From: Sinorhizobium meliloti
GTDB lineage: Bacteria; Pseudomonadota; Alphaproteobacteria; Rhizobiales; Rhizobiaceae
Direction of reading: 5' to 3'
Length of the DNA: 32,000 nt
NCBI RefSeq assembly: GCF_017876815.1
Contig: NZ_JAGIOS010000002.1
Span: 780,001-812,000 of the forward strand
Shown piece after piece: positions 20,172 to 29,135 of the stretch (positions are counted from its first letter, which is position 1; every line of letters begins with the position of its first letter). A program made the translations under genes and the position numbers. A model generated the notes under the pieces. The model searched no databases, was not told where the DNA came from, and was given only the letters and a program-made list of their open reading frames with translations.

Positions 20172-20196
20172 GGAACCAACCTCCCTCGCCAAGGTT
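20172..20196 (+). promoter_or_regulatory. EcfG/RpoE2-type general stress promoter upstream of the catalase
   Basis: The motif is GGAAC (20172-20176) - N16 - GGTT (20193-20196). It lies 36 nt upstream of the catalase ATG, and the leader contains an AAGGAG Shine-Dalgarno. Confidence 0.6.
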
Positions 20197-20231
20197 TCGT
20201 GCCCATCCGCCCTCGACCAAGGAGTGCTGCC

Positions 20232-22349
20232 ATGGCCAAGAAACCCTCTGCGCCGAACAATACGAAGCCGGCCACCATTCATGACCAGAAAGCGACACGC
20301 GGCAACGGTGGAGAACTTCACCAGATCGCCGAAGGCGACACGCCCGTCCTGACGACCGCCCAGGGCGGCCCCGTCGCCGACGACCAGAACAGCCTGCGCG
20401 CCGGCGAACGCGGCCCGACGCTCATCGAGGATTTCCACTTCCGCGAGAAGATCTTCCACTTCGATCACGAGCGCATTCCCGAGCGTGTCGTGCACGCCCG
20501 CGGCTACGGGGTGCATGGCTTCTTCGAGACCTACGAATCGCTTGCAGCCTACACCCGGGCGGATCTGTTCCAGCGCCCGGGCGAGCGAACCCCCGCCTTC
20601 GTGCGGTTCTCGACGGTCGCCGGAAGCAAGGGCTCCTTCGACCTCGCCCGCGACGTTCGCGGTTTCGCGGTCAAGATCTACACCAAGGAGGGCAATTGGG
20701 ACCTCGTCGGCAACAACATCCCGGTCTTCTTCATCCAGGACGCAATCAAGTTTCCCGACGTCATACACTCGGTAAAGCCCGAACCGGACCGGGAGTTTCC
20801 CCAGGCGCAGTCCGCCCACGACAATTTCTGGGACTTCATCAGCCTGACGCCGGAAAGCATGCACATGATCATGTGGGTCATGTCGGACCGGGCGATCCCG
20901 CGCTCCTTCCGGTTCATGGAAGGCTTCGGCGTCCATACGTTTCGTTTCGTCAATGCCAAGGACGAGTCCACTTTCGTCAAATTCCATTGGAAGCCGAAGC
21001 TCGGGCTGCAGTCGGTCGTTTGGAACGAGGCCGTGAAGATCAACGGCGCCGATCCTGACTTCCACCGGCGCGACATGTGGCAAGCCATCCAGTCCGGCAA
21101 CTTCCCGGAATGGGACCTGCATGTGCAGCTTTTCGATCAGGACTTCGCCGACAAGTTCGATTTCGACATCCTCGATCCGACCAAGATCATCCCGGAGGAA
21201 GTGCTGCCGACGAAGCCTGTCGGCCGGCTGGTGCTCGATCGCATGCCGGAGAATTTCTTCGCCGAAACCGAGCAGGTCGCCTTCATGACGCAGAACGTGC
21301 CGCCGGGCATCGACTTCAGCGACGATCCATTGCTGCAGGGGCGCAACTTCTCCTATCTGGACACGCAGCTGAAGCGGCTCGGCAGCCCGAACTTCACCCA
21401 TCTGCCGATCAACGCGCCGAAATGTCCCTTCCAGCACTTTCAGCAGGACGGCCACATGGCCATGCGCAACCCCGTCGGGCGCGTGAACTACCAGCCCAAT
21501 TCCTGGGGCGAGGGCCCGCGCGAGTCGCCCATGAAAGGCTTCCGCCATTTTCCTTCCGGGGAGCAGGGCCCGAAGCTGCGCATCCGCGCCGAGAGCTTTG
21601 CCGACCATTACAGCCAGGCCCGGCAGTTCTTCATCAGCCAGACGCCGCCCGAGCAACGCCACATCGCCGACGCCCTGACCTTCGAATTGAGCAAGGTGGA
21701 GACGCCGGTCATCCGTGAGCGGATGGTCGCGCATCTTCTCAACATCGATGAAACCTTGGGGAAAAAGGTCGGCCACGCCCTCGGCCTGGAGACGATGCCG
21801 AAACCGGCGGATGCGGCCGTTGCCACCCGCCAGGACCTCGACCCGTCGCCGGCCCTCAGCATCATCCAGCGTGGGCCGAAGCGTTTCGAGGGCCGCAAGC
21901 TCGGGATACTGGCGACGGACGGCGCGGACGCCGCGCTTCTCGACGCCTTGATAGGGGCGGTCGAGAACGAGAAGGCGGCCTTCGAGCTGATCGCGCCGAA
22001 AGTCGGCGGCTTCACCGCCTCCGACGGAAAACGCATCGCCGCCCACCAGATGCTCGACGGCGGCCCGTCGGTACTTTACGACGCGGTGGTCCTGCTTCCT
22101 TCCGCAGAGGCCGTCGCGGATCTGATCGACGTCGCCACCGCGCGCGATTTCGTGGCCGACGCCTTCGCGCATTGCAAATATATCGGCTATGCCGGCGCCG
22201 CCGTTCCCCTTCTCGAAAGGGCCGGCATTGCGGAACTGCTCGATGAGGGAACGATCGAACTCACCGACGCTGCGAGTGCGGCCGCCTTTCTCACGGAGAT
22301 CGGTAAACTGCGCGTCTGGGGAAGAGAGCCCTCGGTCAAGCTGAAATAA
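20232..22349 (+). CDS. katE: Large-subunit monofunctional catalase (HPII type) with a C-terminal DJ-1/PfpI-like domain, 705 aa
   Basis: I trimmed track ORF 20199..22349 to the ATG at 20232 (AAGGAG Shine-Dalgarno 7 nt upstream). The catalase core contains [26 protein letters not shown] and [10 protein letters not shown]. The length and the extra C-terminal domain are typical of HPII. It corresponds to what S. meliloti calls katC (from memory). Confidence 0.9.
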
Positions 22350-29101: not shown

Positions 29102-29110
29102 GCCGAAGCA

Positions 29111-29135
29111 AACCGCGCTCCGGCAGGAAGGTTCC
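29111..29135 (-). promoter_or_regulatory. EcfG/RpoE2-type promoter candidate immediately upstream of the SDR-VKOR-like fusion gene. It predicts a leaderless or near-leaderless mRNA.
   Basis: The minus strand reads GGAAC (29135-29131) - N16 - GGTT (29114-29111), followed by 9 nt (TGCTTCGGC) and then the ATG at 29101. No convincing Shine-Dalgarno is present. Confidence 0.5.

Follow-up and report, generated by a model that had tools for sequence, protein, structure and literature searches.

Results

Three RpoE2-type promoter boxes in the window

The three copies of GGAAC-N16-GGTT in the window, a stretch of 32,000 nucleotides that originates from the Sinorhizobium meliloti megaplasmid pSymB (100% identity), are probably promoters of the sigma-EcfG class recognised by RpoE2, with P1 serving katC, P3 weakly serving SMb20012 and P2 weakly serving the ZIP transporter gene. 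The mechanism is a known one, with one known member (site 1) and two probable new members (sites 2 and 3). Exactly three copies were found on both strands of the window, at 20172-20196 (+), 25571-25595 (+) and 29135-29111 (-), against 0.19 expected from the mean of dinucleotide shuffles, and a count of three was reached in 0 of 100 shuffles; the sequence-only reading, which had reported these three copies and no others and had estimated about 0.2-0.3 by chance, was borne out on both points. All three copies are intergenic and oriented toward the next gene, as had also been stated, in a window with an intergenic share of about 6.9%. Site 1 lies between the end of a PNPOx-like gene (20109) and the katC ATG (20232), site 2 between the end of an alpha/beta hydrolase gene (25520) and the ZIP ATG (25747), about 150 nt ahead of the ZIP gene, and site 3 between the stop of a Gfo/Idh/MocA gene (29157) and the conserved ATG of SMb20012 (29101), 8 nt ahead of this ATG. 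The looser pattern GGAAC-N15-18-GTT gives seven matches against 2.3 expected, the four additional ones all being located within coding sequence. The three sites fit exactly the definition GGAAC-N18-19-TT, which is given for S. meliloti RpoE2 promoters in Sallet 2013 (PMC3738161) in the same wording as in the earlier reading. The identities of the catalase, ATP-dependent ligase, ZIP and SDR-VKOR fusion genes were confirmed with Pfam, as shown in Table 1.

Table 1. Coordinates of the promoter boxes, genes and clade-specific segment in the window
Feature	Position	Strand	Description or basis
Site 1, RpoE2 (sigma-EcfG) promoter of katC	20172..20197	+	-35 GGAACCA 20172-20178, 13-nt spacer, -10 AGGTTT 20192-20197
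katC (SMb20007), large-subunit HPII-type catalase	20232..22349	+	Pfam Catalase, Catalase-rel, Catalase_C
SMb20008, LigC-type ATP-dependent DNA ligase	22375..23442	+	Pfam DNA_ligase_A_M, DNA_ligase_A_C
2.3-kb segment, S. meliloti clade only	23443..25739		blastn of the window against S. medicae and M103, junction sequences, Pfam
LysR regulator gene in the 2.3-kb segment	23429-24358	-	Pfam
Alpha/beta hydrolase gene in the 2.3-kb segment	24402-25520	+	Pfam
Site 2, EcfG-type box	25571..25596	+	-35 GGAACTT 25571-25577, 13-nt spacer, -10 AGGTTG 25591-25596
SMb20011, ZIP-family metal transporter	25747..26526	+	Pfam Zip
SMb20012, 847-aa fusion of NAD-dependent epimerase/SDR, VKOR and SPW repeats	26558..29101	-	Pfam Epimerase, VKOR, SPW
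Site 3, EcfG-type box	29110..29135	-	-35 GGAACCT 29135-29129, 13-nt spacer, -10 CGGTTT 29115-29110

A position weight matrix trained on 58 published RpoE2 promoters ranked the three sites at the top of the window, with 17.7 bits for site 1, 16.5 bits for site 3 and 16.3 bits for site 2. The true published promoters have a leave-one-out median score of 16.2 bits, which sites 2 and 3 match, as would be typical of a validated RpoE2 promoter. Matches of at least 16 bits number 3 in the window against 0.30 expected. The replicon scan with an EcfG matrix that had been proposed with the earlier reading was run on 350 kb of pSymB, where matches of at least 16 bits exceed the shuffles, at 34 against 3.55 expected (false-discovery rate about 10%), and these figures rest on the comparison with shuffles only. 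Sorting of the pSymB matches into coding and intergenic ones with a crude GC3-based ORF caller was dropped, because the caller missed small genes, over-extended start codons and called site 3 'coding'.

Site 1 and the katC-ligase unit

Site 1 is the already published and mapped RpoE2 promoter of katC. Table S19 of Schlueter 2013 (PMC3616915) places the RpoE2 promoter of katC (SMb20007) at pSymB 10094-10119, with the mapped start mTSS SMb_TSS0015 at 10127; by the conversion window = pSymB + 10078, site 1 is identical to this entry and the mapped TSS corresponds to window position 20205. The site is conserved in strain M103 and also in S. medicae and S. americanum, where its spacer has diverged. 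Upon rpoE2 overexpression, katC showed a signal log ratio of 4.89 and a logFC of 4.22, and SMb20008 a signal log ratio of 2.19 and a logFC of 1.86 (Schlueter 2013, PMC3616915; Lang 2018, PMC6180224). Because the two genes are co-induced and SMb20008 starts 25 nt past katC, we infer that SMb20008 is co-transcribed with katC from P1. Both genes have long been known as RpoE2 targets, and the katC-ligase unit and its promoter class are textbook knowledge for S. meliloti.

Site 3 and the SDR-VKOR-SPW fusion

Position, conservation and expression together suggest that the membrane redox fusion SMb20012 has in P3 an RpoE2 promoter that is weak but conserved. The start codon of SMb20012 at 29101 is fixed by the conserved N-terminus MPKDANQPTVLITGS; an upstream in-frame ATG at 29188 was rejected as the start, as conservation begins only at ATG 29101 and the S. 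medicae sequence is unrelated just upstream of the box. The predicted TSS of site 3 (29103-29101) falls on or within 2 nt of this ATG, from which a leaderless SMb20012 mRNA is predicted in S. meliloti and S. medicae. In S. medicae the -35 and -10 elements of site 3 are retained while the spacer has diverged, and sequence homology stops exactly at GGAAC.

Full-length SMb20012 orthologues were found across Proteobacteria, and the upstream regions were surveyed for a box of at least 13.3 bits within 150 nt upstream of the orthologue. Such a box was present at 13 of 60 alphaproteobacterial loci versus 0 of 18 non-alpha loci (background 0.0096 per search window, binomial P 2e-14, a value without phylogenetic correction), and was never found upstream of the fusion gene in beta- or gammaproteobacteria among these 18 loci. 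Eight of the 13 box-positive loci belong to Sinorhizobium, Ensifer or Pararhizobium, and outside meliloti/medicae the box is located at a constant 27-36 nt ahead of the conserved ATG in several independent lineages. Comparing alphaproteobacterial orthologues with those outside the class, EcfG-box conservation is seen for site 1 in the three relatives named above and for site 3 in Alphaproteobacteria only. On RpoE2 overexpression SMb20012 displayed a logFC of 0.70 (adjusted P 0.014, 1.6-fold; Lang 2018, PMC6180224, Data Set S1), and the small size of this change would be explained if P3 adds to read-through from the upstream SMb20013, as it probably does. None of the papers searched linked VKOR to EcfG or the general stress response.

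Site 2 and the ZIP transporter gene

The evidence on site 2 points, with less certainty than for P3, to a weak RpoE2 promoter (P2) of the ZIP transporter gene SMb20011. The predicted TSS near 25604 gives a predicted leader of about 143 nt ahead of the ZIP ATG. By blastn, S. medicae and Sinorhizobium sp. M103 lack the 2.3-kb segment that carries the LysR gene, the hydrolase gene and, at its right-hand end, site 2; their ZIP gene comes directly after the ligase gene. Ensifer sp. USDA 6670 retains the box, but with a spacer as conserved as the boxes, so that no footprint is seen, and ZIP orthologues in the plasmid collection matched essentially only S. meliloti and S. medicae. The probe set SMb20010iSMb20011f1, which holds site 2, was induced 1.7-fold on RpoE2 overexpression (logFC 0.76, adjusted P 1.3e-4; Lang 2018, PMC6180224, Data Set S1), and the ZIP coding sequence was not among the RpoE2-induced probe sets of that study, even in its 1.5-fold list. 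This intergenic signal is not assignable to site 2: strain 2011 has a second, stronger box (17.8 bits) at pSymB 15424, 69 nt upstream of site 2, and the array strain, which derives from 1021 and is near-identical to 2011, is expected to have it too.

Site 2 might instead be an active RpoE2 promoter that came with the LysR-hydrolase segment and serves not the ZIP gene but a short non-coding or leader transcript stopping before it, which would agree with the induced intergenic probe set beside the unlisted ZIP coding sequence, with the long leader and with the position at the end of a segment missing in S. medicae and M103. The leader itself argues against such a transcript: no terminator-like site was found in the roughly 150 nt after site 2, its fold is no better than that of shuffled controls (z = 0.63), a riboswitch was rejected as Rfam was blank at the gathering threshold and at E<=1, and a candidate small protein, a 35-codon ORF (ATG 25621, preceded by AAGGAG), was discarded as it is without its ATG in USDA 6670. 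In addition, the ZIP orthologue of Ensifer sp. IC3342 has a box 19/26 identical to site 2 about 190 nt upstream, and also a long leader. We regard a transcript ending before the ZIP gene as unlikely and retain site 2 as a weak promoter of SMb20011.

Regulon membership and clustering

The identification of the motifs as EcfG/RpoE2-type promoters, made from sequence alone, stands, since site 1 is the mapped katC promoter, sites 2 and 3 score as validated promoters do and the probe sets downstream of them are weakly but significantly induced. The proposal that they unite the genes in one regulon, for which a transcriptome comparison had been suggested, holds in part against published RpoE2 overexpression: katC and SMb20008 respond strongly and are rpoE2-dependent, whereas SMb20012 responds weakly and the ZIP coding sequence is unlisted. 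Neither SMb20011 nor SMb20012 exceeds the 2-fold cut-off of Schlueter 2013 (PMC3616915).

The further claim of a 9-kb module did not survive as a unit. Only the S. meliloti/medicae clade and M103 have the katC-lig, ZIP and SDR-VKOR genes side by side; in IC3342 only the ZIP and SDR-VKOR genes are together, and the SDR-VKOR gene has none of these neighbours within 6 kb in S. fredii, S. kostiense, S. shofinae or any other genus. Box density on pSymB is about 1 per 10 kb, and three boxes within 9 kb (0.87 expected, P about 0.06) are not unusual for this replicon. Their juxtaposition over 9 kb is clade-specific, with a separate promoter for each unit, and does not amount to a conserved co-localised stress gene module.

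It is also conceivable, and in our judgement quite improbable, that site 1 alone works and that sites 2 and/or 3 are chance or decayed-relic matches, the array changes being indirect or noise. The fold changes of 1.6-1.7 lie under the 2-fold threshold of Schlueter 2013, whose authors note that rpoE2 overexpression has many secondary effects (PMC3616915); about 10% of the pSymB matches of at least 16 bits are expected by chance, and the site 2 signal is confounded by the neighbouring box in the array strain. Against this, chance is very unlikely to yield two further matches scoring 16 bits or more on the two strands (64 kb), each of them in the 6.9% intergenic fraction and facing a start codon. 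In addition, independent alphaproteobacterial lineages have the site 3 box at a fixed position, and beta- and gammaproteobacteria lack it. Very unlikely is a reading of sites 2 and 3 mainly by a similar sigma factor, such as the EcfG-like paralogues RpoE5 or RpoE6, or a dependence on an activator or on relief from a repressor, either of which would account for the genes responding only weakly to RpoE2 by itself: RpoE5 is in the same ECF15 group as RpoE2, the RpoE6 targets overlap the RpoE2 regulon by 67%, target transcription may require an activator (all Lang 2018, PMC6180224) and a LysR regulator gene shares the segment with site 2, but SMb20012 and the SMb20010-11 intergenic region each occur once in Data Set S1, under the RpoE2 comparison, and are therefore unlisted for RpoE5, RpoE6 or any other ECF sigma.

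Discussion

Proposed mechanism

When stress sets in, the anti-sigma factors RsiA1 and RsiA2 are sequestered by RsiB1 and RsiB2, anti-anti-sigma factors of the PhyR type, and the freed RpoE2 joins core RNA polymerase to recognise GGAAC (-35) and nGTT (-10); the genes of this partner switch (rpoE2, rsiA1/2, rsiB1/2) are chromosomal (SMc01504-06 and others) according to Schlueter 2013 (PMC3616915). P1 starts the katC mRNA at the mapped position and strongly drives katC, with the SMb20008 ligase gene probably read together with it, and P2 would give the predicted leader ahead of SMb20011. Where the ZIP gene lies directly behind katC-lig, as in S. medicae and M103, P1 would reach it.

A wider evolutionary reading is offered tentatively, at slightly less than even confidence. 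Here membership of the SMb20012 fusion in the EcfG regulon would be conserved across Hyphomicrobiales and Rhodospirillales; in meliloti/medicae its 5' UTR, about 20 nt long and including a Shine-Dalgarno sequence, would have shrunk to 0-2 nt, leaving the mRNA leaderless. The ZIP gene would have been kept under EcfG via promoter change: S. meliloti and IC3342 have a box dedicated to it, whereas in S. medicae and M103 it is fused to the katC operon.

Relation to known systems

The promoters of the S. meliloti RpoE2 (sigma-E2, EcfG/ECF15) regulon were reportedly described by Sauviac in 2007. In E. coli, katE, which encodes the HPII catalase, is RpoS-dependent, so that a large-subunit catalase is likewise expressed from a general-stress/stationary-phase sigma factor; katC differs from it in sigma family (ECF group 15), promoter sequence and partner-switch control. 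The analogy of RpoE2-like sigma factors to RpoS was drawn in Schlueter 2013 (PMC3616915). With the RpoE2 promoters of Schlueter 2013 (PMC3616915), Sallet 2013 (PMC3738161) and Lang 2018 (PMC6180224), the three sites share GGAACnn, a spacer of 13-14 nt, nnGTTn and a TSS, predicted for sites 2 and 3, 7-9 nt further on, and site 1 itself belongs to the published set (SMb20007). No entry for site 2 or site 3 was found in the promoter tables surveyed; for nearly all RpoE2-class entries surveyed in Table S19 of Schlueter 2013 (PMC3616915) the signal log ratio is at least about 1, in contrast to the 1.6-1.7-fold changes of the site 2 and site 3 genes, and site 3 differs further in its predicted leaderless mRNA.

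EcfG control of DNA-repair genes is known in S. meliloti for ku3-ku4 and ligD4 (Dupuy et al. 2019, PMC6379672), which share with SMb20008 an end-joining/ligase function under the general stress sigma factor and have EcfG boxes upstream in many Alphaproteobacteria. SMb20008 differs from them in being of the LigC type, with no domains besides adenylation and OB, and in lacking its own box, and is probably co-transcribed with katC; in Dupuy et al. 2019 (PMC6379672) it is named putative ligC and appears only as a candidate for alternative end-joining.

Significance

The practical value is modest, as two probable and weakly responding members, a ZIP importer and an SDR-VKOR-SPW fusion, would be added to one of the best-mapped alphaproteobacterial regulons. 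For the widespread SDR-VKOR-SPW fusion, a protein of uncharacterised function, the general stress response provides a functional context, and the box at a fixed position ahead of its gene in several alphaproteobacterial orders is a lead for work on the VKOR family or on rhizobial leaderless translation. If SMb20012 is indeed a conserved member of the EcfG regulon, its role would be expected in the redox chemistry of quinones or thiols in the envelope, induced by stress.

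Promoter class of the three boxes

Three exact copies of GGAAC-N16-GGTT were observed on the two strands of the 32-kb window (sites 1, 2 and 3, as shown in the table), against a mean of 0.19 in dinucleotide-preserving shuffles, none of 100 of which contained three, and the looser pattern GGAAC-N15-18-GTT gave seven matches in the window versus 2.3 expected. Site contexts, set by flank inspection, GC3-based ORF selection and Pfam scans, confirmed the sequence-only reading that all three copies are intergenic and oriented to the next gene; the intergenic share of the window is about 6.9%, and therefore three oriented intergenic sites out of three are improbable in itself. 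A position weight matrix was derived from 58 promoters with mapped transcription start sites (TSS) of the RpoE2 class, RpoE2 being the EcfG-class general-stress sigma factor of S. meliloti (Schlueter 2013, PMC3616915, Table S19). The three sites were its top matches in the window (17.7, 16.5 and 16.3 bits); for the true promoters the leave-one-out median was 16.2 bits and the lowest score 11.4 bits. The assignment of all three sites to the sigma-EcfG/RpoE2 promoter class is upheld.

The next-best matches (14.75 and 13.5 bits) lie at 10644 (+) and 12464 (+), within sugar ABC transporter solute-binding-protein and permease genes, and are probably fortuitous, because chance alone predicts about 1.5 matches at or above 13.3 bits in the window. 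At 16 bits or more, the window holds 3 matches versus 0.30 in shuffles, and 350 kb of pSymB hold 34 versus 3.55, a false-discovery rate of about 10% with position and orientation not yet used. Other pSymB boxes in strain 2011 (1-350000) include 232765 (19.9 bits), 51593, 241681 and 251150, and many of these further boxes may be promoters of sRNAs, of antisense RNAs or of small ORFs. The window matches S. meliloti pSymB at 100% identity and many further pSymB records at 99-100%, its coordinates being those of strain 1021 pSymB plus 10078.

Table. Boxes and genes of the neighbourhood, in window coordinates
Feature	Position	Strand	Basis and context
Site 1, GGAAC-N16-GGTT	20172-20196	+	exact match
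katC (SMb20007), large-subunit catalase	ATG 20232	+	Pfam; site 1 36 nt upstream
LigC-type ATP-dependent ligase (SMb20008)	22375-23442	+	Pfam; 25 nt past katC
LysR (SMb20009)
Hydrolase (SMb20010)
Second box, GGAACAG-N13-GCGTTT in strain 2011	25502-25527	+	strain 2011 pSymB 15424-15449
Site 2, GGAAC-N16-GGTT	25571-25595	+	exact match
ZIP transporter (SMb20011)	25747-26526	+	Pfam; site 2 150 nt upstream
SDR/epimerase + VKOR + SPW repeats, 847 aa (SMb20012)	26558-29101	-	Pfam; site 3 8 nt before ATG 29101
Site 3, GGAAC-N16-GGTT	29135-29111	-	exact match
Gfo/Idh/MocA (SMb20013)
LacI (SMb20014)

Published evidence for RpoE2 control

The SMb20007 entry of Table S19 (PMC3616915) gives the promoter as GGAACCA-ACCTCCCTCGCCA-AGGTTT-CGTGCCCA at pSymB 10094-10119, with SMb_TSS0015 at position 10127 as its mTSS of class RpoE2, and window 20172-20205 is identical to this promoter at every base. 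The entries for rpoE2 overexpression show signal log ratios of 4.89 for SMb20007 and 2.19 for SMb20008 (PMC3616915), the reanalysis of Lang 2018 (PMC6180224) puts logFC at 4.22 (katC) and 1.86 (ligase), and a review places katC under RpoE2 control. Site 1 is an already known, experimentally validated RpoE2 promoter, where the RpoE2 reading stands but is not new. Its box is conserved in S. medicae, Sinorhizobium sp. M103 and S. americanum, and the S. medicae and S. americanum copies combine a diverged spacer with a retained -35, -10 GGTT core and discriminator.

The 2013 table comprises genes with at least 2-fold rpoE2 dependence; on the plus strand it is empty between SMb20008 and SMb20041, and its earliest pSymB minus-strand entry is SMb20072, so that SMb20011 and SMb20012 were below its 2-fold cut-off. 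Reanalysis of the same arrays at logFC > 0.585 and adjusted P < 0.05 recovered, in the RpoE2 comparison, SMb20012 (logFC 0.70, adjusted P 0.014) and the intergenic probe set SMb20010iSMb20011f1 (logFC 0.76, adjusted P 1.3e-4) (PMC6180224), each with one entry in the data set, the entry shown being that comparison. The response is strong for katC and the ligase and weak for SMb20012; the ZIP coding sequence is missing among the RpoE2-responsive probe sets of this data set.

Site 3 and the SMb20012 fusion

Site 3 is very likely a genuine, evolutionarily conserved, weakly responding promoter. The S. medicae counterpart, GGAACCT-TCGCGTCGGAAGG-CGGTTT, has intact boxes and a diverged spacer, and in S. 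medicae and M103 homology to the window ends exactly at the G of the site 3 GGAAC. In S. medicae T2 about 1.2 kb unrelated to the window (8213-9426) abuts the -35, between the Gfo/Idh/MocA gene and the site 3 promoter. A one-genome-per-species scan yielded 80 loci with full-length SMb20012 orthologues, and among the 78 analysed a box scoring 13.3 bits or more within 150 nt upstream was found at 13/60 alphaproteobacterial loci and 0/18 beta-, gamma- or other loci (background 0.0096 per window; binomial P 2e-14, kinship among loci ignored). Among the box-positive lineages were Sinorhizobium, Ensifer, Pararhizobium, Bradyrhizobium sp. sGM-13, an Aquamicrobium MAG, two Rhodospirillaceae MAGs and Paramesorhizobium.

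Except in meliloti/medicae, the distance from the -10 end to the conserved ATG (MPK..PTVLITGS) is constant at 27-36 nt. The -10 of other Sinorhizobium species, ACGTTTGC, is followed by about 28 nt with an AAGG Shine-Dalgarno sequence, which minus the TSS offset leaves a 5' UTR of about 20 nt; the gap in S. meliloti and S. medicae is 8 nt (GCTTCGGC). At 29101-29115 (-), these two species have lost a stretch of about 20 nt that holds the Shine-Dalgarno sequence and is retained in other Sinorhizobium species. In the published set, RpoE2 transcripts start 7-9 nt past the -10, and with the 8-nt gap the predicted site 3 TSS is therefore 29103-29101; the SMb20012 mRNA from site 3 is predicted to be leaderless. 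SMb20013 lies 55 nt upstream on the same strand, no obvious terminator was seen in this gap, and the array baseline of SMb20012 is high (AveExpr 8.0); read-through from SMb20013 could account for both this baseline and the small fold change.

Full-length SMb20012-type fusions are widespread among Alpha-, Beta- and Gammaproteobacteria at 42-97% identity, and related loci number at least 594; in strain ABS7 a tblastn match to part of the gene may point to a frameshift.

Site 2 and the ZIP gene

Site 2 has the thinnest evidence of the three and is probably, like site 3, a genuine but weakly responding promoter. A second, stronger box (pSymB 15424, 17.8 bits) lies 69 nt upstream of it in strains 2011 and ABS7; at the same place the window strain has GGATCTG (10.2 bits) and USDA 6670 GAATCAG. 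1021-type strains have two tandem boxes ahead of the ZIP gene, the second overlapping the final codons of SMb20010. The array strain derives from 1021, to which 2011 is near-identical, and so presumably has the second box too; the intergenic array signal is therefore not attributable to site 2 alone.

Ensifer sp. USDA 6670, about 88% identical across the site 2 intergenic region, retains the site 2 box, altered only by one A-to-C substitution at a -10 position that carries little information; its spacer is as conserved as the boxes, which leaves no footprint for site 2. S. medicae and M103 lack the segment 23443-25739 (LysR, hydrolase, site 2), and in them ZIP begins about 35 nt past the ligase stop codon and would therefore be transcribed from the katC promoter. 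Only the S. meliloti clade has this 2.3-kb stretch with the LysR and alpha/beta hydrolase genes. The left edge falls within the last three ligase codons, and the LysR 3' end overlaps the ligase stop by 14 nt. S. medicae and M103 have katC, lig and ZIP in a single operon-like row. Ensifer sp. IC3342 has GGAACCT-N13-CGGTTG about 190 nt upstream of the ZIP ATG (19/26 identical to site 2) and a different gene upstream of ZIP. Across these layouts ZIP is thus downstream of an EcfG-type box in every arrangement seen. The leader between site 2 and ZIP showed no Rfam match, excess structure or terminator, and a 35-codon ORF within it is not conserved.

The neighbourhood and its novelty

The reading of the 9-kb neighbourhood as a module was not borne out. 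Only the meliloti/medicae clade and M103 have katC-lig, ZIP and SDR-VKOR side by side; in IC3342 ZIP and SDR-VKOR lie together, katC-lig not among them, the S. americanum katC-lig locus is without both, and SDR-VKOR has neither katC-lig nor ZIP within 6 kb in S. fredii, S. kostiense, S. shofinae or any other genus. On pSymB, boxes scoring 16 bits or more occur about once per 10 kb, which implies about 0.87 boxes per 9 kb, with P(at least 3) about 0.06, and denser clusters occur at 83-105 kb and 251-261 kb. There are several such RpoE2-rich stretches, and the neighbourhood is one of them rather than a distinct unit that is conserved.

In the literature searched, SMb20012 was absent from main texts, and no link between VKOR and the general stress response or functional study of the SDR-VKOR-SPW fusion was found. 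Sites 2 and 3 may already be part of the key lists of Sauviac 2007 or Sallet 2013 (PMC3738161) Table S10. The mechanism is fully known, and what is new is at most two further members of the regulon and the conserved regulatory setting of an uncharacterised fusion protein.
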